From NCBI GenBank assembly GCA_012521875.1, contig JAAYLN010000204.1:1-57269 (forward strand): DNA of 57,269 bases, written 5' to 3'. The notes beneath the pieces were generated by a model. It ran no database searches. It had not been told where the DNA came from and saw only the letters and a list, made by a program, of their open reading frames with translations. Shown here in pieces: positions 7,813 through 39,829 of the stretch. Positions within the stretch are counted from its first letter, which is position 1; every line of letters begins with the position of its first letter. The stretch comes from Lentisphaerota bacterium (GTDB taxonomy: Bacteria > Verrucomicrobiota > Kiritimatiellia > RFP12 > JAAYLN01). The position numbers were made by a program, and so were the translations under genes.

Positions 7813-10800
7813 CTACCGCCGCCGCCCGCGGCGGGCGGAGCCGAGCGCCAGGCGCAGCACTATCCCCGCGCCCGCAAACACCAGCAGCAGCGGCCAGTAG
7901 CCCAGCAGCCGCATCCATGCCGGACGCCGCTGCGCCTCGAAGACCACCCGCAGCGTACCGCCGCCAGTGTTGAGCAGGGCGCGGCTCAGGCAGATCTCGC
8001 GGCCATGCTCGGGCATGGCGATGCGGATCGCCGTCGCCGCCGAGGCCGCCTGCACCTGCTGCTCGACCATCTTGTCGGCCACGCGCTCGAGGTTGTCGCG
8101 GTCGGCGGCATCAAGCTGTTCCTCGACCTGCCGCACGTAGCGCTCGTCGAAGTTGCCGTTGTTCCAGCCGACCTGCGCCTGCGGCGCGCCCTCGTCGTAG
8201 ATGTTCTTCTCGGCGCGCAGCGCCTGGCGGCGGTTGACCAGTCCCATCTTGACCTGCTGGCGCACCACGTTGCGGAACTGGACGCGGGCGTCCTCGTTGA
8301 GCGCCTGCTCGCCCTGCGAGAGGTTGACCGCCTGCTGCAGCGCGTGGCGCGCATCGAGCTGTCGGCCGGCCTTGAGCAGGGTATCGAGCGACTGCAGGTT
8401 GCCGCGGGCCGCCGTCAGGCTGGCCGCCTGCGCCTGCTGTACCGCCGTCTCGTAGGCCGATTTGCCGAAGGAGCGCAGCATGTCGCTGTCCACAAGATCG
8501 AGGTCGCCGCCGCGCAGCCGCCAGCGGTACTCCGCCGGCACGAAGAGGCGCCACTGGATATCGCGCAGCGGCAGGTCGGGCAGACGCAGCGCCTGCAGCT
8601 CGCGGCATCCGTCCAGCCCCGCCTCCGGCAGGGCATCGGCATAGACCAGCGTGACGTGCGCCGGCTCCTCGCGCGCGACACCCTCGAGCGCGATGCTGAG
8701 CGTCTCGCCGCCGGCTCCCTTCTCGCGCGCCACAGGCGCCTCGCCGCCGTTGACCAGCGCCGACCAGAGCCGGTTGGACGGGCCCGGCAGGATCACGCGC
8801 AGATGGCGCAGGCTGCCCGGCTGCAGCGTGATCGTCGCCTGCGTCAGCAGCCGCCCGCTGCCGGAGAGCACGGTCACCAGGCGCACCTGCCTGACCTGTG
8901 CCGGCAGTACCGCCGCCGCGGCATGGCGCACCACCGAAAGCTCCAAACGGTAGTCGGGACGCAGCACGCGGTAGCAGCGCAGGGCGCCGGAGAGGTCGCC
9001 GGCACCGAAGCTGTCCGGCAACGCGCGGGCATCCTCGGGCTTCAACCCTGCCGGCTCGCCGCGCGGCTCCACCTGCACGCGGCCGCCGCCGGTAATCACC
9101 AGAAAGCCCGACTGGCGCGCCGTATCCAGCGGCTCGAACGGGCGGATGACCACCCCGCCGCCGGCCGGATCGTAGGGCTCCTGGTACTGACAGACCAGGC
9201 TGAAGCTGTCCTCGACCTTGCCGTGCAGCTCGATCTCCCAGATGCGCCCAGTGCCGTTCGAGACGGCGGCCGGCACATCGTCCAGCGGCCGCACGCGGGC
9301 GATGCCGCGGCCGCTCACCGTCACCGGCGCCTCGGCGACGGGGACGCGCACGCGGAAGACCTTGACCCCGGCATTCTCGATCCGGTAGCGCGCATGGATG
9401 CGGTGCAGCAGCATCCCCTCGGCCAGATCGACGCAGTGCAGCACCTCGGGCTTGAGCACCGGCGCCAGCACCTCGGTTTGCAGCCCGATCTGCCAGCCCG
9501 GCCGGAGCAGGTCGAAATGCAGCGCTCCGGCGGGGGCGCGCGTCTCGTCGCCGGGCCGGCGCGCCACGGCACCCTCGATCTGCCCGGTCACCAGCTTGAC
9601 GCCGCGCTCGGCCGCGACGGAGATCCGTCCCGAATGGCGCAGCGCCCCCCGCACCTGCACCCTCGGCACAGTGATCTGCGGCGGCACCCCGCGCTGCTGT
9701 TGCGATAGCACGAGGTTGAGCGAGGTCGTGTCCTGTACGCGGCGCGTCAGGAACACCTCCACCCCCTGCTGCCCGCCGCGCCGCGAGTCGTCCCAGTGGC
9801 TCACGTCGCGCCCGGTCAGCGACTCGATCTCGTAGCCCTCGGGCAGATCGAGATGCAGGGCGAAGAGTCCCGCCTTGGCCACGCTCACCTCCAGCGTGCC
9901 GCTCAGGATCGTGCGCTCGTCGCCGATGCTGAAGAGGCTGGCCTCGCTGACGCGGATTTCCGGCTGCACCTCCTCGGCGTGCAGGGCGATCCGCACGGCG
10001 GCGGGGTCGTCGTAGCGGAAGGCGCGGCGCAGCGTGGTGACGGACGACGCGCGCTCGGCCGCGAAGGCCGCCAGGCTGAAGTCGTCGGTATCTATGGGCG
10101 ACACTCCCTGCACATCGCCGATCCGCGCCAGGATGTCCTCGGGCGCCGCGAGGGCGATGCGTCCGCGCTGGCGCCCGACGCCGATGGCCGCGGGCACGCC
10201 GAGCGTGCCGTCATACGGCAGACCGCCGCAGGGCGACTGGAGTATCACGGTCAGCGTCAGTGTGCCGCTCGCCGGACGCGACAGTGTCATCCCCAGGCTC
10301 CGGTCGGCGGGATCGAAGCGCCAGGTGGCCAGCAACGGCCCCGCCACCGCGGTCACGGTCATGCCGGCGGGCGCGGTCAACGCGAACTCGCGCGTCTCGC
10401 CCTGCACGATCGTGAAGCTTACGAGCGACTGCATCTCGATGACCCCGGGGCGCAGGCGCGCGAGGCTGGCCACATCGGCATAGACCACGGCGGTCTCCAT
10501 CCGCGTATCGCGCGCGCGCGGTTTCCAGGCTATCTCAACCCAGTCGGTGGCCGTCAGGGTCGCCTCCACGCGTGTCGCGCCGTCGGCGCTCTCCAGATCG
10601 AGGCTCGCGGCAGAAGGAATCTCCACCTCCATGTCGGTGGTGGGAATCGTCAGCGCGAGGCGGTTGATCAGGTTCGACGGCCAGGGCAGCAGCAGCCTCC
10701 GTCCGCCGTCGCGCTCCCAGACCTGCTCGCGGGTCGTGATTTCAAGGCGGTGCTCGCCGGCCTTGAGGATGTCGAGCTGCACCCCGCTCCTGTGCGATAC

Positions 10801-13800
10801 CAGCCGCAGGCGCGCGGCATCGGCACGGAAGCCGGCCACGACGCTGCCGGGCGGCAGCAGCAGCCGCCTGCCGGGCGCATCGGCACGGAAGACCAGCGTC
10901 CAGCGCACCTCCGCCACCGGCTCGGCCTCCGGCGTGGCCGGTGGCGCCTCGATTTCCACCTCCAGCCGGTCGGCGGCCAGCGCGGGCGGCAGCGCAACGG
11001 CCGCGGGGAGCGCGGGCCGGACTTGCGGCCCGTCCGGCGCGACCGCTGCCGGTGCCTCGGTACGGGGAGCCGCCTCCGTCTCCGCCTTGAGCGTACCGAA
11101 CCCCGCCAGCAGCAGCGACGCCAGCGCGGCAAGCAGGATGAGGAAGAGCGGCGAAATCGAGCCTTCGGTTGAGGTGTCGCCGGGCGCGGCGTCGTCTGCG
11201 GGGGCGGCGTCCGGTTCCGGTTCGGGCACGAGGGGGGGCGGCGGTACGCGGGATGTCTTGCCCTTGCGCTCCCGCCGTTCACGTGGCGACCGGTTATTTA
11301 GGCGGGCGATACCGCGCGCAATGGCCGCGATCAGGGCTACCGCCGTGCCGACGGTACCGGCTATGACCACACCAATGAGCCCGGGTTGCGTCTGGGCCGC
11401 CGCCAGCGCCAGCAGGGTCAGCGCCAGCGCAAGCCAGAAGCGGCGGCGCAGCACGAGACCGATCAGCAGGGCCGCCAGCCCCGCCGCGCCCGCGACCACC
11501 ATCCGCCGCGGCGAGCCGCCGGCCATCCAGCTTGGCAGCAGTTCGACCGTCACGCGGAGACTCTCCTCGTCGGCGAGGTTGGCGGTACGGTAGAAGCTGA
11601 CGGTACGCGCGCGGCGAGCGCAGGGCGAGGCCCACGGCCAGCGTCCGGCCGTTCCGGCCTCCGGCGTCAGATTGCCGCCCGCGGCACCGATGGCGCGGTT
11701 GTCGTCGGCCGTCACCTCCCAGCGGGTGAAGGTGGCGGGGGTGTCGCTCAGTTGCGGCGCCGTGAGCCCGACGCGCAGCGGACGCTGCCGCACCGCCGGG
11801 GCGGGCTGCGCATAGACAATCTCGATCGGCACGGCCTGGTTGGGATCACGCAGCCGCGCCACCGGAATCAGCAGGCGCTCGCCGTCCTGCTGGGCGGGCA
11901 GGTCGCGCGCGTTGGCCTCCAGTCCCTGGCGCACGCTCCAGAGCTTGGCGCCGGCGGGCAGGCGCGCCTCGAGGTACTGGCGCGAGGCGTTCTTGACGTG
12001 GCAGGTGGCGCGTGTGACCGACTCGCCGTCGCGCCCGATGCGCGAGGAGAGCGCGAAGTAGTCAACAACCTGATCAATCGGCCGCTGGGTCTCGAGGGTC
12101 GTGACCCGCAGCGTGGCGGCATGCGGACGGCGCGTGTACTTGTAGACGGCCAGCAGGGGGGCGGTGACGGTGGCGGCGTAGCCGGCCGGCAGCTCGTCGC
12201 GCGGGATGCGGATCAGGCCGGGCGGCAGGGGAGCGGTCTCCTCGAGGCGCAGGCCGGCACCGGAGGCCACGGCCATGAAGCCCATCTCGCTGGCGGTACC
12301 GACCGCCTCGATCCCCCCGATCCGCAGCTCCGCGCCGTCGTAGCCGAGCGGCTGGTCGTAGGTGATCAGCAGGGTGGTGTGGCCCATGGTGCGGCTGGCA
12401 AGCTGCACGCGGCAGAGGTCGTTGCTGCGCGACCAGTTGTCGATCCCCGCGCCGACGATCTCCAGGCTCGCGCCCGCGTCCGGAACGCGGAAGGCGAGCG
12501 TCTGCACCGGCGCGCCGCTGATGTGGCAGTTGACCGCCGCCGAGACATAGACCACACCCGCGCCGAGCGAGAGCAGATGGAAAATCTCGGTATGGATGGC
12601 CGATTGCGCCCATTCGAGCCCCAGATCGAGCTTCCAGCCCGGCTCGCGGAAGCGGTAGGCGAGCTGCGCCCCCTCGGCGCGGAAGGGGGTCGAGCCGGTA
12701 TGCACATCGCGCAGGTTCTCGGCGGCGCGCGGCACGAGGCGGATACCGCGCTCGGCCGCCGCCACGATGCAGCCGCGCTGCGTGCGCGCCCCGGGCAGCG
12801 ACACCGAGGGTACAGTGAAGGCGTCGCGCGCCAGCCCCAGCGGCAGCTCCATGCGCAGGTTCAGCAGCGTCTGGCCCTCGACCGGCTGACGGAACGGAAC
12901 GAGGATCTCGCGCCGGCCACCCTCCGCCCGGACATCCACATCGCTCTCGATAACCGGCTTGCCGGTCACGCCGATCAGCGTCCAGCGCGGATCGGCATCC
13001 GCCACGAGCTTCACCTCGCGCACCGGCGCGTCGCGCACGTCGAGCCGGATGGCGGCGTCGAGCGCCAGCCGTCCCTCGGCAACGTTGACCAGCAGGTCGA
13101 TCTCGCCGCTCAGCGCGGGGACAACGTGATCCGCGCCCAGCGTCAGCGCGTAGGGCAGCGCGGCGTACTGGTAGGTGAAGACGCTGCGGGTGGGTAGCGT
13201 GCGCGCATAGCCATCGCGCAGCGGTGCCGGTTGCGCGAAGGCAGCCTGGTCGATCTGCGTGATGCCGCTCGCCGCCGCAACCTGCAGCTTGACGGCGCTG
13301 TCCGTCCCGAGCAGCAACTGCCCGCCGGCGCGGATCACGCCCTGCGGCGCGAGCACCGGCAGCCCGAGCGTGCAGGGAAAGGCCGGCAGGGCACGGTCGT
13401 ACTCGACCTGCAGGCGGTACTCCCCGCGCTGCGGACGCCCCAGCGTGATGCGCAGGCGCGGTGCGGCGGATTCGGTACGGTCGATCCGCCAGTCCTGGAT
13501 GTCGGCACCGGTAACCCGCAGGATATTGACGTCCGGCAGGGTGAGGCTCAGCTCGCTCATCTGACCCTGCGCGATGCTGTAGGCGTAGATCGAGTCGAAC
13601 CGCAGCATGCCGGGACTGGCCGTGACAATCGTGTTGATGTCGCACGTGGCGACCAGTTCGGAGGCCACGCGGCGGATTTCCGGCTTCCAGAAGACCTCGA
13701 AGAGGGGATTTGTGTCGAGGTGTACCGTTACGGTATCGCGCCCGTCCGCGTCCGGCTGCCGCTGCAGACCGCGTCCGCCGGGGAAGCGGATCTCGAGACC

Positions 13801-14205
13801 AGGGCGGTCGGCCGTGACGGCGACGGAGCGTACCGGCAGCACGGGCACGCGGAACTGCGCCTGGCGCCAGTCGCCGTCGGCCACGGTACGCACGGCGAAG
13901 GCGAGGCGCACGCGGCCCTCGCCCGCGCGCCAGCCGCCGGTGCGCACGATGCGGAAGGCATCCCCGTCACGGCGCAGCTCGGTATGCCGCGGCAACCTGG
14001 CCTCGGTCAGGGCGACCTCGCCACGCAGCACCTCGAGACTCTCGCCCCGCGCCAGATCGGCATAACCGATCTCCAGCTCGAAGCGGATATTCTCGCCATC
14101 AATCCTGCCTTTCAGGTCAAAACTCCGCGGCACTACCGCCGCTAACAACGCAACGTGCGCAAAAAGCAGGAACAGCAGACTTATATGCGTTCTACATGTT
14201 TTCAT
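7813..14205 (-). CDS. Giant (2130 aa) membrane protein: two paralogous beta-rich modules of about 900 aa, a central TM cluster, and a C-terminal coiled coil plus TM anchor
   Basis: Uninterrupted ORF. N-terminal signal MKTCRTHISLLFLLFAHVALLAAV. GGAG Shine-Dalgarno 7-11 nt upstream. Hydrophobic cluster at aa 902-966 and 1017-1037. C-terminal WMRLLGYWPLLLVFAGAGIVL. No family name assignable without a search. Confidence 0.85.
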   Translation of the reverse strand: MKTCRTHISLLFLLFAHVALLAAVVPRSFDLKGRIDGENIRFELEIGYADLARGESLEVLRGEVALTEARLPRHTELRRDGDAFRIVRTGGWRAGEGRVRLAFAVRTVADGDWRQAQFRVPVLPVRSVAVTADRPGLEIRFPGGRGLQRQPDADGRDTVTVHLDTNPLFEVFWKPEIRRVASELVATCDINTIVTASPGMLRFDSIYAYSIAQGQMSELSLTLPDVNILRVTGADIQDWRIDRTESAAPRLRITLGRPQRGEYRLQVEYDRALPAFPCTLGLPVLAPQGVIRAGGQLLLGTDSAVKLQVAAASGITQIDQAAFAQPAPLRDGYARTLPTRSVFTYQYAALPYALTLGADHVVPALSGEIDLLVNVAEGRLALDAAIRLDVRDAPVREVKLVADADPRWTLIGVTGKPVIESDVDVRAEGGRREILVPFRQPVEGQTLLNLRMELPLGLARDAFTVPSVSLPGARTQRGCIVAAAERGIRLVPRAAENLRDVHTGSTPFRAEGAQLAYRFREPGWKLDLGLEWAQSAIHTEIFHLLSLGAGVVYVSAAVNCHISGAPVQTLAFRVPDAGASLEIVGAGIDNWSRSNDLCRVQLASRTMGHTTLLITYDQPLGYDGAELRIGGIEAVGTASEMGFMAVASGAGLRLEETAPLPPGLIRIPRDELPAGYAATVTAPLLAVYKYTRRPHAATLRVTTLETQRPIDQVVDYFALSSRIGRDGESVTRATCHVKNASRQYLEARLPAGAKLWSVRQGLEANARDLPAQQDGERLLIPVARLRDPNQAVPIEIVYAQPAPAVRQRPLRVGLTAPQLSDTPATFTRWEVTADDNRAIGAAGGNLTPEAGTAGRWPWASPCARRARTVSFYRTANLADEESLRVTVELLPSWMAGGSPRRMVVAGAAGLAALLIGLVLRRRFWLALALTLLALAAAQTQPGLIGVVIAGTVGTAVALIAAIARGIARLNNRSPRERRERKGKTSRVPPPPLVPEPEPDAAPADDAAPGDTSTEGSISPLFLILLAALASLLLAGFGTLKAETEAAPRTEAPAAVAPDGPQVRPALPAAVALPPALAADRLEVEIEAPPATPEAEPVAEVRWTLVFRADAPGRRLLLPPGSVVAGFRADAARLRLVSHRSGVQLDILKAGEHRLEITTREQVWERDGGRRLLLPWPSNLINRLALTIPTTDMEVEIPSAASLDLESADGATRVEATLTATDWVEIAWKPRARDTRMETAVVYADVASLARLRPGVIEMQSLVSFTIVQGETREFALTAPAGMTVTAVAGPLLATWRFDPADRSLGMTLSRPASGTLTLTVILQSPCGGLPYDGTLGVPAAIGVGRQRGRIALAAPEDILARIGDVQGVSPIDTDDFSLAAFAAERASSVTTLRRAFRYDDPAAVRIALHAEEVQPEIRVSEASLFSIGDERTILSGTLEVSVAKAGLFALHLDLPEGYEIESLTGRDVSHWDDSRRGGQQGVEVFLTRRVQDTTSLNLVLSQQQRGVPPQITVPRVQVRGALRHSGRISVAAERGVKLVTGQIEGAVARRPGDETRAPAGALHFDLLRPGWQIGLQTEVLAPVLKPEVLHCVDLAEGMLLHRIHARYRIENAGVKVFRVRVPVAEAPVTVSGRGIARVRPLDDVPAAVSNGTGRIWEIELHGKVEDSFSLVCQYQEPYDPAGGGVVIRPFEPLDTARQSGFLVITGGGRVQVEPRGEPAGLKPEDARALPDSFGAGDLSGALRCYRVLRPDYRLELSVVRHAAAAVLPAQVRQVRLVTVLSGSGRLLTQATITLQPGSLRHLRVILPGPSNRLWSALVNGGEAPVAREKGAGGETLSIALEGVAREEPAHVTLVYADALPEAGLDGCRELQALRLPDLPLRDIQWRLFVPAEYRWRLRGGDLDLVDSDMLRSFGKSAYETAVQQAQAASLTAARGNLQSLDTLLKAGRQLDARHALQQAVNLSQGEQALNEDARVQFRNVVRQQVKMGLVNRRQALRAEKNIYDEGAPQAQVGWNNGNFDERYVRQVEEQLDAADRDNLERVADKMVEQQVQAASAATAIRIAMPEHGREICLSRALLNTGGGTLRVVFEAQRRPAWMRLLGYWPLLLVFAGAGIVLRLALGSARRGRRR

Positions 14206-14232
14206 TGGCGACTCCTGTCTACGTAGCCTTGA

Positions 14233-14692
14233 TTAATCAGGAACTCAAGAACTCATGAAATTTGTTTTGCTATCTCCCGGCCAACCCGCTTGACGGTGAG
14301 CGGCATGGCGGCAAAGTTGAGTAGAAGTCCGGAATCGACATTGACGGCATTCATATAGGAACGGACTATGGAAAAATGTATGGGCTCGAAAGCCTTGATC
14401 GCCTTGAGCTCCACGACCACGCGAGTATCGACCAGCAAATCGAGACGATGTTCCCCAATGGGAAATCCACGATAAGTCAGATGGACAACCTTTTGTCTTT
14501 CAAACGGGATGTTCTGAGAGGTCAACTGGATACAAAGCGCCTCTTCGCAAATCGATTCCAGGAAGCCCGGCCCCAGAGCTTTATGAACAGCAATGGCTGC
14601 CGCTATGATCTCCGCCGTGATCTCCTTGTCCGGCATTTCGAGCCGATCCTCTTCCATAAGCATCCTTCCTGAGTTCATGAGTTCCTGATTAA
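14233..14692 (-). mobile_element. Miniature cassette: a single GxxExxY-family ORF bounded by a 22-bp inverted repeat (21/22), inserted in an operon junction
   Basis: Left arm TTAATCAGGAACTCAAGAACTC (14233-14254). The right-arm reverse complement is TTAATCAGGAACTCATGAACTC (14671-14692). Both termini carry TTAA. Removing it leaves a 34-nt gap between the anti-sigma stop and the giant-gene start. Confidence 0.55.
14253..14678 (-). CDS. GxxExxY-family protein (PD-(D/E)XK nuclease fold superfamily)
   Basis: EIIAAAIAVHKALGPGFLESICEEALCIQL..IPFERQ..GEHRLDLLVDTRVVVELKAIKAF..SIVRSYMNAVN..GLLLNF matches the family layout. The motif position is G-F-L-E-S-I-C, so Tyr is replaced by Cys. Confidence 0.8.
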   Translation of the reverse strand: MNSGRMLMEEDRLEMPDKEITAEIIAAAIAVHKALGPGFLESICEEALCIQLTSQNIPFERQKVVHLTYRGFPIGEHRLDLLVDTRVVVELKAIKAFEPIHFSIVRSYMNAVNVDSGLLLNFAAMPLTVKRVGREIAKQIS

Positions 14693-14699
14693 AAAGACC

Positions 14700-17306
14700 T
14701 TAATCACTAATAGCCCCCGCCAATTCCACTAATCTCACCAATTCCGCCACTCGTGTATCGAGTTTCATCTCCAGAGCCACCGGGCGCAGCAGACGTGATA
14801 CATCGGCGAAGCGGCTGCCGGCGGCATGGGGACTGCGGCGCAGCAATTCGGCAAATTCGGCGGCGCAGGCCGCCAGCCGCAGCCCGGGCCGCGCGGCCTC
14901 GATGCGCGGTACGAAATCGCGCGGCAGGATCGGACGCTCGATCTCCTCGATGGCCTGCGTATCAACCCGGCGGTAGCGCACCCGCACCCACCCCAGCGGC
15001 TGATCGCGCGGTGCCGGCTCGACGCGCTCGAACTCGTAGAGCGCGGTGACCGACTGCCCCGAGCCGACCTCGCCGGCATCCACTGTATCATCGCGGAACT
15101 GCTCCTTCGTGAGGGCGCGGTTCTCGTAGCCAAGCTGGCGGTAGCGGCTCACGGACGCGGGCGACCATTCCACCTGGATCTTGACATCCATGGCGATGGT
15201 ATTGAGCGTGGCGGCCAGATCGTCCACGAAGGCGCGCCGCACCTCGGCGGGCGAGTCGAGGAAACGGTAGGAGCCATCGCCGCGGTTGGCCAGTTCCTCC
15301 AGCATGCGGTCGTTGTAGGCGCCGCGTCCGACGCCATAGACGGTGCAGGTGATCCCCTGGCGGCGGTAGGCGTCGATCCGCGCGAGAATATCGGCGGCGG
15401 AGTCGGTGCCGAGGTTGGCCACGCCGTCGGAGATCAGGATGACGCGGTTCTCGCCGCCGGGGACGAAGGCGCGCGCGGCCTGCGCGTAGGCCATGCGCAT
15501 GCCCTCCTCCAGATTGGTCGAGCCGCGGCACTGCAGACGGTCGAAGGCGGCAAGGATGGCGGCACGCTCGGTGGCCGGCGTCGCATCGAGCAGCAGGCGC
15601 GCGTGGTCATCGAAGGCGATCAGTTGCAGGCGGTCGTGCGGGGCGAGCTGCTCCAGCAGCAGCGCCAGCGCCCCGCGCGCGAGGCCGATGCGGTCGGGCT
15701 GGGCCATCGAGCCCGAGGCGTCGACGAGGAAGGTCAGCATGGCCGGGCGCTGCTCCTCGCGGCCGAGGCGGCGTCCCTTGACCCCGATACGCACGAGTTC
15801 GAGCCCGGCGCCGAAGGGGGCGGGCGCGCCCTCGACATAGACGCGGAAGACGGCGGTATCGGGAGCGCGGTCGCCATAGTCGAAGGCGTTGACGATCTCC
15901 TCGGTACGGACCGCCTCGGGATCGGGCAGCGCGCGGTTCTCGAGCGACTGGCGCGTGCGGGTATAAGAGGCGGTATCAACATCTATGGCGAAGGTCGAGA
16001 AGGGATTGGCACGCGTCTCGACGAAGGGGTGGTGCGCGGCGGGGACACGCGCGGCGGGCGGCGCTTCATCCTTAGCCTTCATTCGCTGGATGGTTTGTTC
16101 CTCGGGCAGCAATCCGGTTTCCTCACGCTCCTCGGCGTCAGCCGCCGGCTCTGTCGGCGGCACGGCCTGGCGCGTACCGCCAGCCACAACCTGCCCGCTA
16201 GCATGGCCGACGGCGGCCGGGGAATCCGTCTGCTCCGAAAGGATGACTTCCACGGCTATGTCATCGTCTTTGGACGCAGTGTCTTTGCTCGTCTCCGATG
16301 CACCCCCTGCCGCTACCATCATTCCCCTTATTTTCGCCCTGCGAGGTGTGCCGTAGATGTTGCGCAGGATGACCGGCGATTTGACTTGCATGGCAGTATC
16401 ACGAGCCTGCGGTTTGGGGCTTGCCATTGCGCGGGGGGCCGGGGGTAGCGGCGGTTGTGGCGGAGCAGCAGCCACGGCGCTTTCGGGCGCGGGTTCAAGC
16501 CGACGGGAACGCACCGGCATCCGCGGCCCAGGGGCGGCAGCCATTTCAGGCGCGGGGGCAGGCGCGGCCGGCTTGCGAGGGGCATCGGCTCTAGTTACGC
16601 CTTCATCAAGGCAGACTTCCACGACTATGTCGTCGTCTGTGTACGAGGTGTCTTTGCGCCCCGCCGACGCACCAGTCTCTCTGCTCTCTGCCCCTCCACT
16701 AGCGCCGTCGGCCCAGCCATGCATGATGAGCGGTGATTTGATCTGCATGACAGTCTCAAATGCCTGCGGTTTGGGACTTAGCGGCTCGGGTGGCGGCCGG
16801 GGAGAGAGGGAGAAATCGGGTGTGAAGGCCGGAACTTCCGGCTGGCGCATAGCATCGACAGCGGGGGGCGCCACCTCTTCGAGTTCGGCGACCTCCTCCA
16901 GACATTCCACAGAATCAGCGTAAGGATAATACATGGGGGCTCTTGCCGCGCGTTTGGCGCGATAGGAGAAGGCGGGCATAAGCGCCATCCAGGCAAAGCC
17001 CACCACCAGTGCCAGCGAGGCCGCCAGGCGGAGCATGGGGTGGGTTCCGCGCCACCAGCGGCGGAAGCGGCTCTGGTAGGGTGTCGCGAGTACCTGGCGG
17101 CGCCTGGACGGGTAGAGCCGCAGCGGTTTGGCGGGTTCCTCCGACAGCCCCTGCCGCAGGGCGGCGACGACCGGTTCGAGCTCGCCTGCCAGAGCGCGGC
17201 AGGCGCCGCACTCCGCCACGTGGCGGCGGATGGTCTCGGCCTCGGCCGGCGGGAGGTCGCCCAGCAGCCAGGAGGTCAGGCGGTCTTCATAGGCGCAGTG
17301 CTTCAT
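14700..17306 (-). CDS. Anti-sigma factor (zf-HC2) with one TM, a duplicated Pro/Ala-rich linker and a C-terminal YfbK-like VWA domain
   Basis: MKHCAYEDRLTSWLLGDL..IRRHVAECGACRAL (H-x3-C-x2-C). TM LRLAASLALVVGFAWMALM. NPFSTFAIDVDTASY. MIDAS motif FLVDASGSM. ATGA start/stop overlap with the sigma gene at 17303-17306. Confidence 0.85.
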   Translation of the reverse strand: MKHCAYEDRLTSWLLGDLPPAEAETIRRHVAECGACRALAGELEPVVAALRQGLSEEPAKPLRLYPSRRRQVLATPYQSRFRRWWRGTHPMLRLAASLALVVGFAWMALMPAFSYRAKRAARAPMYYPYADSVECLEEVAELEEVAPPAVDAMRQPEVPAFTPDFSLSPRPPPEPLSPKPQAFETVMQIKSPLIMHGWADGASGGAESRETGASAGRKDTSYTDDDIVVEVCLDEGVTRADAPRKPAAPAPAPEMAAAPGPRMPVRSRRLEPAPESAVAAAPPQPPLPPAPRAMASPKPQARDTAMQVKSPVILRNIYGTPRRAKIRGMMVAAGGASETSKDTASKDDDIAVEVILSEQTDSPAAVGHASGQVVAGGTRQAVPPTEPAADAEEREETGLLPEEQTIQRMKAKDEAPPAARVPAAHHPFVETRANPFSTFAIDVDTASYTRTRQSLENRALPDPEAVRTEEIVNAFDYGDRAPDTAVFRVYVEGAPAPFGAGLELVRIGVKGRRLGREEQRPAMLTFLVDASGSMAQPDRIGLARGALALLLEQLAPHDRLQLIAFDDHARLLLDATPATERAAILAAFDRLQCRGSTNLEEGMRMAYAQAARAFVPGGENRVILISDGVANLGTDSAADILARIDAYRRQGITCTVYGVGRGAYNDRMLEELANRGDGSYRFLDSPAEVRRAFVDDLAATLNTIAMDVKIQVEWSPASVSRYRQLGYENRALTKEQFRDDTVDAGEVGSGQSVTALYEFERVEPAPRDQPLGWVRVRYRRVDTQAIEEIERPILPRDFVPRIEAARPGLRLAACAAEFAELLRRSPHAAGSRFADVSRLLRPVALEMKLDTRVAELVRLVELAGAISD

Positions 17307-17884
17307 ACGCCCTCCTGTTTTTGGATGGTGGCGGCGAGTTTCCTGACGGCCTGGTGCAGCAGGGTGCCGACATAGCCGCTGGAGCGGCCGGTCACGTCGG
17401 CAATCTCCGCATAGCTCAGCCCCTCCTGCAGGCGTAAAAGGATCACCTGGCGCTCGGGCAGGCTGAGCGTGTCGAGGGAGCGCATGACGAGGGCGACGCG
17501 CTCGTCGGGCTGCGGGTCGCAGTGGACGCCGTCGGGGCAGCCGATGGCGGCATCGGCGGCCCGGAGGTCGTGGTGACGGCGGCGGCGCTCCTCGGCGCGG
17601 ATCAGATCGACGGCCTCGTTGTGCGTGACGCGGTAGAGCCAGGCCTTGAGGCGCGCATCGGCCTGCATGCCCTCCGGCCACTGCCGGAAGAGCTTGATAA
17701 AGGCGTTCTGTACTACATCCTGGGCCATGACGGTGTTCCGCAGCAGCCGGGCGGCATAGCGCAGCAAAGGCGTCTCAAAGGCGGCCACGACGGCTTCAAG
17801 CCGTTCATTGCGCCTCACGCGTGGAGACTTGTCCTGCGCTGGGTTATCAACCATTTCCGCTCCCGGGATCGAGGAACCTTTCAT
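17303..17884 (-). CDS. ECF-type RNA polymerase sigma-70 factor
   Basis: Region 2 LLRYAARLL..AQDVVQNAFIKLF..WLYRVTHNEAVDLIR. Region 4 LPERQVILLRLQEGLSYAEIADVTGRSSGYVGTLLHQAVRKL. Confidence 0.9.
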   Translation of the reverse strand: MKGSSIPGAEMVDNPAQDKSPRVRRNERLEAVVAAFETPLLRYAARLLRNTVMAQDVVQNAFIKLFRQWPEGMQADARLKAWLYRVTHNEAVDLIRAEERRRRHHDLRAADAAIGCPDGVHCDPQPDERVALVMRSLDTLSLPERQVILLRLQEGLSYAEIADVTGRSSGYVGTLLHQAVRKLAATIQKQEGV

Positions 17885-17935
17885 GGCTTATACGTCTGCC
17901 GCGGCAACTTTCTTTGCCGCGCAGTAATTTTCAGG

Positions 17936-18370
17936 CTAAGGCATGACCCGCAAGCCGGCTGCGGCGGCCAGAGCCTTCTGCCGCGTGTCGAAGGAAAGAA
18001 AGAGCGTGGCGCCGAGCGCGGCGGCGGTAGCAACATGCAGGATATCTGCGGCACGTGTTCCGAGGGTTTCAGTGTGAGCCGCACTTAGCTCCTCGGCAAC
18101 GTCGTACACCTCCGCCCATGCAACAGGGGTCTCCGCTAACACACCTGAACGCTTGTCCATCTCGATGGCAGCAAGGACAGCCTGGCATTCAGGCGCCGTA
18201 ATCTCTCTGCGGAAACACGCCAACCGAACGGCGTTACGAGCCTCATGGCGTTGAAACGGCGTGTAGATCAGCGGGGTTTCGAACTCCATGACAAGCGTCT
18301 GAGCGCGAGCGCTGTTAGTATCGCGGCCATACAGCGAGACCAGGAAGCTCGTGTCGGCGTAGATTACCAC
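17936..18370 (-). CDS. vapC: PIN-domain toxin (VapC-like)
   Basis: GTG start overlaps the antitoxin stop. VIYADTSFLVSLY...ADILHVATAAALGATLFLSFDTRQ carries the typical PIN acidic positions. Confidence 0.8.
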   Translation of the reverse strand: MVIYADTSFLVSLYGRDTNSARAQTLVMEFETPLIYTPFQRHEARNAVRLACFRREITAPECQAVLAAIEMDKRSGVLAETPVAWAEVYDVAEELSAAHTETLGTRAADILHVATAAALGATLFLSFDTRQKALAAAAGLRVMP

Positions 18371-18612
18371 CTGCCCTGCTCCCGTTCTTCCAGCACGATA
18401 TCGGTGAAGCTTGTCGTCTTCTCCCCGAAGATCGCCTTCGCACGCGCAGCGAAATCGGGCATCCTGACCTTGGCCGGAGGTTGCGGGCGGGGCGGCAGGA
18501 TGCGTGCCACGGGGCGCTTGCGGTTGAGCACCGTGATCTCCTCGCCCGCAGCAACCCAAGCCAGCACGGAGCCGAGGTCGTGGCGCACTTGTCGAATGGT
18601 GACGGTTTTCAT
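18364..18612 (-). CDS. Phd/YefM-type antitoxin
   Basis: MKTVTIRQVRHDLGSVLAWVAAGEEITVLNRKRPVARILP. A 7-nt overlap with vapC. An alternative ATG lies at 18621. Confidence 0.75.
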   Translation of the reverse strand: MKTVTIRQVRHDLGSVLAWVAAGEEITVLNRKRPVARILPPRPQPPAKVRMPDFAARAKAIFGEKTTSFTDIVLEEREQGRW

Positions 18613-18619
18613 GGTATAC

Positions 18620-18648
18620 ATTATGTGTCACATCAATGCCGGCGTCAA
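18620..18648 (-). promoter_or_regulatory. Sigma-70-like promoter for the antitoxin-toxin pair; implies a leaderless or near-leaderless mRNA
   Basis: Minus strand reads TTGACG-17 nt-CATAAT-GTATACC-ATG(18612). Confidence 0.4.
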
Positions 18649-38085: not shown

Positions 38086-39222
38086 TTACACCCTCTTTCG
38101 AAGCCAAAGTCCGAAGAAGCGGTCGTAGACAAAATATTTTCCCGACTCGCCCTTCAAAACGAGCGCCTTGTTCTCAAGCGCTTTCAAGGCCTGTCGAACG
38201 CTGCTTGCAGCCCCCAGGCGATGTTTGGCGAGGAAAGAGCCTTTAAACGGTTCCGCGACCCCGCGTTCGACCGCCAGCGCTTTCAAAACGGCCAGTTGGC
38301 CGCGAGGCAGCATTTCGCAGAAGGCCTTGTAGGTTGCGTCTTCACATGCAATCGCCGCGTCTATGGCTTCCTGCGCGTCGCTGACCGCAGTGGTTTTCCG
38401 TCCCGAGGCAAAAATCCGGTTCAACGCCATTTGGACATACCACGTATGGCCGGAGAGTTCGTTGTAGATCCAGTCGAATGCCTCAGGCTCGAGAACCCGG
38501 TTTGCCTTGGCAAAGAGACCGGTGGCAAACGTTCGGTAGGGCTCAAGCTGGATTTCCCCGAGCGCGATTTTCTGGGTGCTCTGGTAAAACGGGCGTTTCG
38601 CAGACGAAAACATTTCCTCCATCAAATGCTTCTTGCTTCCTGAAAAGACAAGGCCGGCGTTTGGAAGGAACTGCGCGTGGGATCTCAGATCCGCTTCGAC
38701 CCCCTTGTCGGGATATTCCAGGATTTGCTGAAACTCGTCGATGGCGATGACACACCGCTTCCCCGATTCCCGGATGTAGTCAAAGACTTCGGAAAGGCTC
38801 CGCCTTGTCTCGGATGGCTTGATGTCAAACGAAAGCGTTGGCGCGCCGGTCTGGGAATCAAATGAGAACGTCGGGCGAAAGCTCTTGAAGAAAGAGCCGA
38901 TGCGACGGAGCGCGGCTTCGGAATGGTCGTCGAGCCGCCCGACAACCGCCCGCGCCAGCATGGTCGTGAAGTCGTGCAGGTTCTGGGTTGAGAAGATGTC
39001 GATGTAAAAGCGGCATCGCACCGAAGGGATCGTGGCGTCGAGGCGGTTGAAAAGATGGAGAATCAGTCCCGTCTTCCCCATGCGGCGCGGGCTGACGAGG
39101 CAGACGTTGCGCCCGTTGGCAAGAGCCGAAGCGAGTTCTTCCGTCTCCTTTTCACGATCGCAGAAATAATCGGGGCCTTGGTAGCCGGAAACGAGAAATG
39201 GATTGGCGGGTTTTGCTTTCAT
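38086..39222 (-). CDS. ATP-binding protein, Arch-ATPase/DUF234-like (AAA+ plus C-terminal wHTH-like region)
   Basis: ATG at 39222. FCDREKETEEL..VCLVSPRRMGKTGLI (Walker A). VIAIDEFQ (Walker B). Confidence 0.8.
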   Translation of the reverse strand: MKAKPANPFLVSGYQGPDYFCDREKETEELASALANGRNVCLVSPRRMGKTGLILHLFNRLDATIPSVRCRFYIDIFSTQNLHDFTTMLARAVVGRLDDHSEAALRRIGSFFKSFRPTFSFDSQTGAPTLSFDIKPSETRRSLSEVFDYIRESGKRCVIAIDEFQQILEYPDKGVEADLRSHAQFLPNAGLVFSGSKKHLMEEMFSSAKRPFYQSTQKIALGEIQLEPYRTFATGLFAKANRVLEPEAFDWIYNELSGHTWYVQMALNRIFASGRKTTAVSDAQEAIDAAIACEDATYKAFCEMLPRGQLAVLKALAVERGVAEPFKGSFLAKHRLGAASSVRQALKALENKALVLKGESGKYFVYDRFFGLWLRKRV

Positions 39223-39829
39223 GGAGACGAAGCCTACCAAATTACATAAAACATGTAACGCAAATTGTGTAATGAGAGCGTAATCGGTCAGTCGCCGGGG
39301 GCTAGTCGCTAGTGCCGAATCGGGCATGTTGATGCCGGGCGGATTGACCCCACCGCCACGATCTCGGCCAGCGGGAAGTCGGGGCCGTTAGCGTTATCGG
39401 CATAGGTTGTGTGATGGAATTCCATCGCCGTTCTACGTCTTCAGATCAGGGAAGAGGGACCTGGGTTATCTCAAAAGCGCATCCACTGGTCCCCTGTGTC
39501 ACGTCGCAAGCTGGCAGTCATTGTACTGTACAAATGCATGGCTTGCAATCACGTCTTCGGAACCCTTCATACCTGGAGACGCCCGTGGCGGGTGCTATGT
39601 TTGAGCACCTCGAAATTATTTGCCACAGTTTGGCCGGCGCCTGTACCGAACCACCCCGCCCGCCGCCCCGGCACAAGCTGACGGTACGGGCACTGATTTG
39701 AACCGCCAAGACGCCAAGAGCGCAAAGAAAATTTGTAATTTTCGATTTGTGATTTGTGATTGGTTGTGCTTCGCTCAAGACGCCTGGAGCGCAAAGCATA
39801 TAAGCCATATTATGACTAGCCGCCACGGC

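Follow-up and report, generated by a model that had tools for sequence, protein, structure and literature searches.

A candidate autoregulated operon of an ECF sigma factor, a VWA-containing anti-sigma factor and a giant membrane protein in bacteria of the PVC superphylum

Extracytoplasmic function (ECF) sigma factors constitute one of the major signalling routes of bacteria, and most of their groups have no known input or output. In two of the catalogued groups, ECF226 and ECF289, the sigma factor is accompanied by a +1 anti-sigma factor with one transmembrane (TM) segment, a von Willebrand factor domain and DUF3520 (Casas-Pastor et al., 2021, NAR; PMC7826278; bioRxiv 10.1101/2019.12.11.873521). 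ECF226 is distributed in Acidobacteria, Planctomycetes and Verrucomicrobia, includes zinc-binding anti-sigma (ZAS) proteins among its anti-sigma types, and has neither a conserved context nor a reported promoter; ECF289 is 100% proteobacterial and has the promoter CCCAAGGA-Xn-CGTCTxA (Casas-Pastor et al., 2021; PMC7826278). Both are bioinformatic groups with no studied member listed, and the data set of the catalogue included only 2 Kiritimatiellaeota and 14 Lentisphaerae genomes (Casas-Pastor et al., 2021). No experimental work on anti-sigma factors with a von Willebrand factor A (VWA) domain was found in the literature. Here we analyze a locus with such a pair in a contig from a Lentisphaerota bacterium (GenBank assembly GCA_012521875.1, contig JAAYLN010000204.1, positions 1 to 57,269), the whole of which, 57,269 nucleotides, is referred to as the window. 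The genes for an ECF sigma factor and a VWA-containing anti-sigma factor are followed there by that of a 2130-aa membrane protein, hereafter the giant, and comparison with related loci makes it fairly probable that the three constitute an autoregulated signalling operon conserved across the Planctomycetes-Verrucomicrobia-Chlamydiae (PVC) superphylum.

An earlier reading of the DNA, done from the sequence alone, had described an ECF sigma factor, a zinc-finger anti-sigma factor and a 2130-aa membrane protein in this order, with an inserted cassette before the last gene. Domain searches and open reading frames (ORFs) confirmed this arrangement, and every feature that had been listed was located where the sequence-only reading had placed it, on the minus strand; the one adjustment concerns the probable start of the sigma gene, discussed below. 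The elements of the module are as follows:

7813-17884 (-): the three native module genes and the cassette, all on the minus strand, in the order sigma, anti-sigma, (cassette), giant
17889..17922 (-): predicted ECF-type promoter of the sigma gene, with -35 CAAAGAA at ~17916-17910, a 16-nt spacer and -10 CGTATA at 17894-17889
17303..17884 (-): ECF sigma gene, longest ORF of 193 aa, with Sigma70_r2 and Sigma70_r4_2
14700..17306 (-): anti-sigma gene, 868 aa, coupled to the sigma stop codon by ATGA, with GGAGG ahead
14233..14692 (-): GxxExxY (PDDEXK_3) cassette, 460 bp, inserted ahead of the giant gene
7813..14205 (-): gene for the giant (membrane protein, 2130 aa), third in the conserved order and probably a target of the sigma factor

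The first gene product matches Sigma70_r2 at residues 35-100 (9e-14) and Sigma70_r4_2 at residues 133-183 (2e-12), and the Pfam scan revealed no other sigma domain in it, region 1 and region 3 included. It scored 76.1 bits against the NCBIfam model TIGR02937 (sigma70-ECF; cutoff 42.9), with every NCBIfam equivalog model remaining under its own cutoff. Having regions sigma-2 and sigma-4 only, the protein is an ECF (group IV) sigma-70 factor. Its true start is probably the ATG at 17854, preceded by the ribosome-binding site GGGAG, which would give 183 aa. This start is preferred over the ATG at 17884 because the conserved -10 element ends 4 nt before the latter, and because the orthologue in locus L001, a relative 71% identical, starts at the position equivalent to M11.

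The translational coupling of the anti-sigma gene to the sigma gene through an ATGA overlap, also pointed out beforehand, is present, with GGAGG ahead of the anti-sigma ATG at 17306, and this -4 overlap is retained in most orthologous loci. The following elements were delimited in the anti-sigma factor:

17199..17222 (-): ZAS motif H29-x3-C33-x2-C36 (zf-HC2, 6.6e-07)
16971..17027 (-): single TM helix, aa 94-112, from a hydropathy scan
16035..16970 (-): variable, Pro/Ala-rich periplasmic linker, aa 113-424 (~310 aa), differing in length among orthologues
14718..16034 (-): periplasmic sensor, composed of vWF_A, VWA and YfbK_C (Pfam)
15789-16034 (-): vWF_A, aa 425-506 (Pfam)
15261-15737 (-): VWA, aa 524-682, with DASGS at 529-533; metal ion-dependent adhesion site (MIDAS) residues D529, S531 and S533, plus downstream T and D
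14718-15212 (-): YfbK_C, aa 699-863 (Pfam, 2.8e-38)

The zf-HC2 match, at 29.7 bits (cutoff 22.2), contains the ZAS-type H-x3-C-x2-C motif, and H3 or C4, located 25-26 residues before H29, is by its spacing a possible fourth zinc ligand. The zinc motif is kept in the orthologues of Kiritimatiellia, Lentisphaeria and Planctomycetota and lost in those of Verrucomicrobiota, so that zinc is not essential to this family of anti-sigma factors. Nearly all orthologues have a single TM segment at residues 90-130, in agreement with the one segment at aa 94-112 of the window protein, and their total length ranges from 662 to 1439 aa owing to the widely varying linker. The extracytoplasmic part comprises residues 113-868 and, as had been noticed from the letters alone, ends in a VWA domain of the YfbK type: vWF_A, VWA and YfbK_C scored 78.9, 52.9-61.6 and 132.3 bits, all above gathering cutoffs of 23.8-27 in Pfam. 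The five MIDAS residues (D, S, S, T, D) are invariant in an alignment of 45 homologues. An AlphaFold2 (AF2) model of the sensor (pLDDT 88.7, pTM 0.86) predicts a VWA fold followed by extra beta-strands and C-terminal helices. Its best Foldseek matches were ArnB, the Catenulispora VWA protein 4fx5, ITIH1, the pilus-tip adhesins SpaC and PitA, alpha2delta subunits, integrin beta3 and BatB. VWA modules with protein ligands account for many of these matches. By sequence, the nearest solved VWA domains are those of the Mg-chelatase D subunit, ITIH4 and the anthrax toxin receptor.

More than 2700 homologues of ectodomain residues 420-868 were retrieved at E <=1e-20, many of them with zf-HC2, and the names given at source were usually "Ca-activated chloride channel family protein" or "VWA domain-containing protein"; among the homologues of the sensor domain is one of an isolated strain, Pontiellaceae bacterium B1224. 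The protein database entry for the window anti-sigma factor is a 517-aa product only, the source gene call starting inside the linker; this call omits the ZAS domain and the TM helix, and thus hides the identity of the protein as an anti-sigma factor. A further observation concerns the linker, where the motif PKPxxF-D/E-xVxxxKSP[VI][IVM]..G appears twice, at aa 175-235 and 294-358 (window ~16230-16785). The two copies read SPKPQ..T.MQ.KSP.I ... DDDI.VEV, with the DDDI.VEV tail seen only in them, and the KSP[VI][IVM] core with P-K-P-A-E-F-D-S-V ahead is found again in 11 orthologous linkers and might serve for docking, for cleavage or as a pseudo-ligand.

The third gene encodes a protein for which the following layout was obtained:

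aa 8-26 of the giant: N-terminal signal or anchor, by hydropathy
11506..14127 (-): periplasmic beta-sandwich module 1, aa 27-900, paralogous to module 2
11101..11505 (-): TM cluster, loop and fourth TM segment, with TMs at ~902-919, 923-937, 941-963 and 1017-1035
8473..11100 (-): periplasmic beta-sandwich module 2, aa 1036-1911, all beta in the AF2 model
8047..8463 (-): periplasmic helical bundle, aa 1915-2053, from the AF2 model
8284-8298 (-): invariant N1970-E-D-x-R1974 (NEDAR), inside the helical bundle
7834..7890 (-): C-terminal TM anchor, aa 2106-2124; the tail after it, RRGRRR, is cytoplasmic

The two large beta-rich modules proposed previously are present and are related to each other, residues ~93-831 and ~1148-1888 being paralogous (BLASTP E = 5e-40, 25% identity over 765 aa); at the sequence level the giant is thus a tandem duplication of one ~800-aa beta-sandwich array. 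The loop between the third and fourth TM segments is basic, Pro-rich and cytoplasmic according to hydropathy and the positive-inside pattern, and the TM-cluster region is the least conserved part of the protein. AF2 modelling of residues 1036-2130 from a 67-sequence alignment (mean pLDDT 88.6) gave nearly all beta structure up to model residue 876, helices at model residues 880-1018, and then a small beta element and a TM helix. Sequence and model together describe the giant as a predicted five-TM inner-membrane protein that exposes two paralogous beta-sandwich arrays and a helical bundle to the periplasm. Over its full length, conservation is highest in the 30-residue stretch 1968-1997 (ALNEDARVQFRNVVRQQVKMGLVNRRQALR), which lies in the periplasmic helical region and in which N1970, E1971, D1972 and R1974 are invariant.

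The giant falls outside characterised families. It had no Pfam or NCBIfam match, none of 21 diverse members of the family had a Pfam match at E up to 0.5, and profile sequence searches of the PDB returned no family (noise only, E ~0.5). PADLOC anti-phage defence models did not match any of the four proteins of the locus. With Foldseek, residues 1036-2130 resembled ribophorin I/OST1, integrin alpha chains, PIG-T and complement C5 in the PDB, with TM-scores <=0.30, C5 being the only fold match of the alpha-2-macroglobulin (A2M) family and a weak one (probability 0.44). The leg domains of integrin alpha chains are beta-sandwiches as well. These matches are taken as fold-class resemblance to generic multi-domain beta-sandwich proteins and not as homology.

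Relatives of the giant were detected in at least 594 species (in a scan of GTDB with a single genome for each species, where 594 of the 599 candidate stretches encode one), mostly of Kiritimatiellia, Lentisphaeria, Verrucomicrobiota and Planctomycetota, bacteria whose cell envelopes are poorly understood, with a few metagenome-assembled genomes (MAGs) labelled Acidobacteriota. A word-indexed protein search with the giant yielded 73 clusters, about two-thirds of them longer than 2070 aa and the named ones belonging to Kiritimatiellia, Phycisphaerae, Verrucomicrobiales and Planctomycetota. With phmmer, run over 1.84 billion representatives, 2320 clusters (50% identity) were obtained at E <=1e-3 and 449 at <=1e-30. 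Most of the best 150 listed are 2.1-2.6 kaa long with two matched stretches, which makes the double-module form the norm. A profile search for single-module relatives gave mostly fragments of the giant family, and some "split" versions, such as that in L089, may be assembly frameshifts. The family, of membrane proteins 2100-2600 aa in length, thus escapes Pfam altogether, and was probably missed earlier for lack of a Pfam domain and because few PVC genomes were then available.

The genomic context of the family was analyzed in 87 fetched loci, mapped by tblastn with the window sigma factor, the anti-sigma N-terminus, the VWA region and the giant modules. A VWA-YfbK_C gene in the same orientation precedes the giant in 55 of the 61 loci with at least 1.6 kb of upstream DNA, within 700 bp in 37 of those 55, and a sigma gene lies upstream in 44 of the 48 loci with at least 5 kb. 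Gene calls repeated the order sigma, anti-sigma, giant on independent contigs, with different flanking genes every time, and this synteny persists down to 27-35% identity of the giant, two Acidobacteriota-labelled MAGs (L077 and L078) included. The arrangement goes far beyond chance, and being found in four or more phyla it bears out the idea of the three genes as one functional unit, already advanced from the window alone, and shows the unit to be conserved. Of the two outcomes that the sequence-only reading had named as refuting it, a lack of conserved synteny and a giant from a well-characterised family with an unrelated role, neither was observed.

Operon order can persist passively in related genomes, and a few loci lack the pair beside the giant: in L043 the giant is alone, next to an RluA gene, and in L028 there is an insertion sequence-type insertion upstream of it. 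One could thus propose that adjacency has no functional meaning and reflects shared ancestry only. This explanation is strongly disfavoured, to the point of being extremely improbable, given that the order is kept in Kiritimatiellia, Lentisphaeria, Verrucomicrobiota, Planctomycetota and Acidobacteriota-labelled MAGs at such low identities, that the flanking genes differ at every locus, and that the sigma promoter accompanies the giant when it moves, also in L043 (see below). A distant branch of the family consists of a ~1200-aa single-module protein followed by one of 2480-2870 aa, the two genes overlapping in L006 and L007:

L006, 6421-17452: distant gene pair
L007, 6357-18430: distant gene pair
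L088, 10001-22340: distant gene pair

Neither a sigma or VWA gene nor the NEDAR motif was found with the pairs of these three loci.

The regulatory link between the sigma factor and the giant was explored through the promoter. A Gibbs motif search over 47 regions upstream of sigma genes converged on a single motif, present in 44 of these regions and summarized as yGAAkAa-N16-aCGTaTc. Its form in Kiritimatiellia, Lentisphaeria and Planctomycetota is T-rich, followed by yGAAkAa, N16 and aCGT[AC]T[CA], and in Verrucomicrobiota it takes the form TCTAAGAAA, N16, GTGTCAT; by its sequence it corresponds to a typical ECF-type promoter with a CGT-containing -10 element. A position weight matrix (PWM) was trained on 22 orthologous sites upstream of sigma genes, the window being excluded. 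The site at 17889..17922 of the window scored 27.1 bits, the best position on both strands, and no equal score arose in 50 shuffles, so the ECF-type promoter that had been suggested as something to look for upstream of the operon was indeed found.

All fetched loci, 2.93 Mb with the two strands added up, were then scanned for sites of at least 18 bits. Such sites were located upstream of sigma genes in 22 cases, many of them training sites, and elsewhere in 11. Five of these 11 lie 14-57 nt upstream of a displaced full-length giant (L011, L017, L019, L021 and L043), one precedes a module-2-only gene (L018) and another an anti-sigma gene (L038). When the 250 nt ahead of every giant gene were scanned separately, weaker sites came to light in L023 (15.4 bits) and L062 (17.8 bits), along with strong sites of the Verrucomicrobiota type in L077 (25.6 bits) and L078 (29.0 bits). 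The same 250-nt scan gave no site of the Kiritimatiellia/Lentisphaeria type of 15 bits or more ahead of giants located within ~700 bp of the anti-sigma gene, and none ahead of the giant gene of the window. Since the promoter accompanies the giant gene when this is displaced, the giant can be taken as a direct target of the sigma factor: its membership of the sigma regulon is highly likely from these sites, and it is very probably the main output of the sigma factor.

In the window, the second-best PWM site (20.6 bits) is at 39576-39609 (-), 249 nt upstream of an AAA/ATPase_2 gene (38086..39327) within a low-GC island. It was considered as a second target and set aside, being indistinguishable from chance, and the PWM scan gave no other convincing site in the 57 kb.

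A different role for the giant has to be weighed at this point. Third genes of ECF operons are often signalling partners, conserved examples being established in FecIRA, RseAB and CnrYXH, so the giant might be mainly a co-regulator, either a co-anti-sigma factor or protector in the manner of RseB or a transducer in the manner of FecA, with the real regulon elsewhere in the genome; the weaker promoter-like site of the window would fit such a regulon. We consider this unlikely: a protein of 2100 aa with two large beta-sandwich arrays would be a costly regulator, displaced giants keep their own sigma-type promoter, which is typical of targets, and the window has no further convincing site.

Between the promoter and the giant gene of the window stands the cassette, the insertion of which had been recognized from the outset and is confirmed by its ends and by a relative that lacks it:

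14253..14678 (-): GxxExxY/PDDEXK_3 gene, 141 aa
14233-14259 and 14666-14692: 27-nt inverted repeats bounding the cassette

In L001 there is no cassette and the anti-sigma and giant genes are 25 bp apart at the same junction, which identifies the element of the window as an insertion; the GC content is 0.56 in the 1-kb window 14001..15000 around it and ~0.70 on each side. Judged from these sequence features, it is a secondary insertion, foreign to the native module yet inside the transcription unit. A promoter or terminator of its own was considered, and the promoter/terminator scan detected none on its coding strand. No terminator-like site was found on the coding (minus) strand within the three-gene unit either, the sigma-70 promoter and terminator scan of the region being otherwise uninformative. 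Given this lack of terminators and of a promoter at the giant gene, we infer that transcription from the sigma promoter proceeds through the co-oriented cassette. We hold it reasonably likely, from the conservation of the promoter and the gene order, that this promoter drives the sigma, anti-sigma and giant genes as one autoregulated unit.

GxxExxY genes stand at the anti-sigma/giant junction in three unrelated lineages, those of the window, L048 and L079:

L048, 1396-1809: one copy of the GxxExxY gene
L079, 5756-6085 and 6245-6577: two copies, on the opposite strand

Repeated landing of a small mobile cassette at this intergenic spot is thereby suggested.

From what is established for ECF/anti-sigma pairs, the operon would work as follows. 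At rest, the ZAS domain would sequester the sigma factor. Perception of a periplasmic event by the VWA domain would lead to inactivation of the anti-sigma factor, probably by regulated proteolysis, and the freed sigma factor would raise expression of the operon, the giant included, in a positive autoregulatory loop. What the VWA domain perceives is the speculative last step. A VWA domain with a MIDAS normally binds protein carboxylates through a metal ion, and the MIDAS might bind an acidic residue of the giant, for which the invariant NEDAR helix would be the best candidate; in that case the system would keep watch over how much of its own product there is, or in what state, in the way that FecR does with FecA. 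The giant is favoured as ligand by the protein-binding type of the VWA domain, by the invariant acidic helix in its bundle and by the loss of the motif in relatives without a sigma gene. Even so, we propose the giant as the VWA ligand, as the sequence-only reading had done, only tentatively and as speculation, and it is equally doubtful that an integrin-like MIDAS contact to the NEDAR helix, or to another part of the giant ectodomain, would make sigma release report on the assembly, damage or ligand occupancy of an envelope structure peculiar to PVC bacteria and made up of the twin beta-sandwich arrays of the giant.

Several facts weigh against this proposal and, in part, against the explanation as a whole. 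In Proteobacteria, ECF289 pairs a VWA-DUF3520 anti-sigma factor with other neighbours (Casas-Pastor et al., 2021). On a Rhodothermales-labelled contig (L090, 2-4401) a VWA-YfbK_C gene, a sigma gene and a second VWA-YfbK_C gene stand in tandem with no giant downstream, and the first of these VWA proteins (P0207), which has no adjacent giant, is 48% identical to the window ectodomain. L090 and ECF289 imply that the sensor can work without a giant. The structural matches of the giant are, as said, generic beta-sandwich arrays; vertical inheritance of one operon gives equal synteny with or without contact between the proteins; the promoter was deduced from conservation only; and in the window, read-through of the inserted cassette to the giant gene is an assumption.

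These same facts bring in the explanation by which the giant is a regulated output and nothing else, the VWA domain sensing another periplasmic cue (a foreign or misfolded protein, an invading protease, a surface polymer or divalent cations) with no contact with the giant. VWA-DUF3520 anti-sigma factors without a giant, as in L090 and in ECF289 with its other neighbours, speak for it; the promoter data speak of regulation and not of contact; and the A2M gene found upstream of the giant in five loci would fit a response to proteases or to a breach of the envelope. The near-universal adjacency of the genes across long-diverged phyla, and the fact that the invariant acidic helix of the giant is lost in sigma-less relatives, go in the opposite direction, neither being decisive. 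We regard this explanation as quite possible, somewhat short of even odds, and it differs from the best explanation, an autoregulated operon whose giant is also read by the VWA sensor, only in that last, speculative step.

The A2M gene just mentioned encodes a 1977-aa bacterial alpha-2-macroglobulin with MG2, A2M and bMG10 domains, an LSAC lipobox and a CAEQ motif, and lies upstream of the giant in L017, L019, L021, L023 and L024, all of one subclade. Only in L024 does the sequence reach back to the anti-sigma gene:

L024, 756-6689: A2M gene, between the anti-sigma and giant genes

In the other four loci the giant has its own ECF-type promoter. An A2M gene was also considered for the window and found absent on checking. 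Periplasmic alpha-2-macroglobulins are protease-trapping proteins, and the presence of one in the L024 operon and upstream of the giant in four more loci suggests, as no more than a hint, an envelope-protection role for the output, so that this occasional pairing would point to envelope defence.

Some features surround the operon in the window. A PIN-domain gene at 17936-18631 (-) ends 14 nt upstream of the start of the promoter site at 17922, ~20 nt before the -35 element, and the 2.7 kb between 18000 and 20700 have a GC content of 0.59-0.61 and small ORFs only; gene and stretch may represent a mobile or toxin-antitoxin island that entered directly ahead of the operon. A 29-nt dispersed repeat, GTAGGGACAAAGTGTGGGGACGAAGCGTA, is present in 10 copies at <=3 mismatches, with a chance expectation of 0; several copies are in gaps between longer ORFs and one is just downstream of the giant gene:

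4541, 6378, 7557, 18872, 32479, 37419, 40363, 40403, 50816 and 55438 of the window: copies of the 29-nt repeat GTAGGGACAAAGTGTGGGGACGAAGCGTA

If the VWA domain does read the state of the giant, the operon would offer a parallel, in bacteria, to ligand sensing of the integrin type, with transcription coupled to it, and would be a self-monitoring ECF circuit of a kind not described before, giving a first function to a YfbK-type VWA sensor and to an unannotated giant family of ~2300 clusters.

Among known systems, the closest in logic is FecI-FecR-FecA, in which a sigma factor and a single-pass regulator with a periplasmic partner-binding domain are accompanied by a large envelope protein that is both partner and target. 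The likeness is one of three-gene logic only: the module has no TonB-dependent transducer or outer-membrane barrel, FecR, STN, Plug and TonB_dep_Rec had no Pfam match in the anti-sigma factor or the giant, the giant is predicted to reside in the inner membrane, and its contact with the sensor is a proposal only. In RsgI/SigI of Clostridium thermocellum and in RsiV/SigV, a large extracytoplasmic domain of the anti-sigma factor binds the ligand directly and the sigma factor is released. A large extracytoplasmic sensor is shared with them, but theirs are carbohydrate-binding modules or a lysozyme-binding domain, in contrast with the MIDAS-containing VWA domain found here. As to the sensor itself, it has in common with YfbK, ITIH, ArnB and integrin I-type VWA proteins the vWF_A, VWA and YfbK_C set, the VWA fold and a complete DxSxS...T...D MIDAS. 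YfbK of Escherichia coli is, however, a standalone protein with no assigned function and is not known to act as an anti-sigma factor, whereas the window protein fuses the sensor to a ZAS domain and a TM helix, and owes its regulator character to this fusion.

The giant can be compared with bacterial alpha-2-macroglobulins of the ECAM/YfhM type, also large periplasmic beta-sandwich proteins anchored in the inner membrane. It differs from them in its five TM segments and duplicated architecture and in its domains, for neither the giant nor 20 diverse homologues had MG, A2M, thioester or bMG10 matches at E up to 0.5, while the same domain search that gave nothing for the giant easily detected the A2M gene of L024. 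The Bat operon likewise has membrane-anchored periplasmic VWA proteins (BatA and BatB) beside a beta-rich membrane-anchored protein (BatD), and BatB is one of the structures that the sensor fold matched. The module differs in that genes for MoxR or DUF58 are absent and Pfam gave neither BatD nor BatA_N, and the Bat operon for its part has no sigma/anti-sigma pair.

Finally, ECF226 and ECF289 have the same +1 anti-sigma factor (one TM segment, VWA, DUF3520) as the window pair, a match made on the published descriptions of the groups. The sequence-only reading had not recognized the three-component arrangement as a characterised system, which holds for the giant and the promoter, unrecorded until now, and has to be corrected for the sigma/VWA-DUF3520 pair, catalogued in these two groups without experiments. 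The promoter of ECF289, CCCAAGGA-Xn-CGTCTxA, resembles the motif of the module (AAGAA/AAGGA ... CGT[AC]T), but that group is wholly proteobacterial. The taxonomic range of ECF226 resembles that of the carriers of the giant, the PVC superphylum plus a few Acidobacteriota-labelled MAGs. The sigma/anti-sigma pair is thus of a known kind, and the giant partner and the promoter are additions: with respect to ECF226, the module brings a conserved promoter and a conserved +2 giant gene, by which an orphan catalogued group, that of the VWA-DUF3520 anti-sigma factors, gains an output gene and a promoter motif, both conserved.

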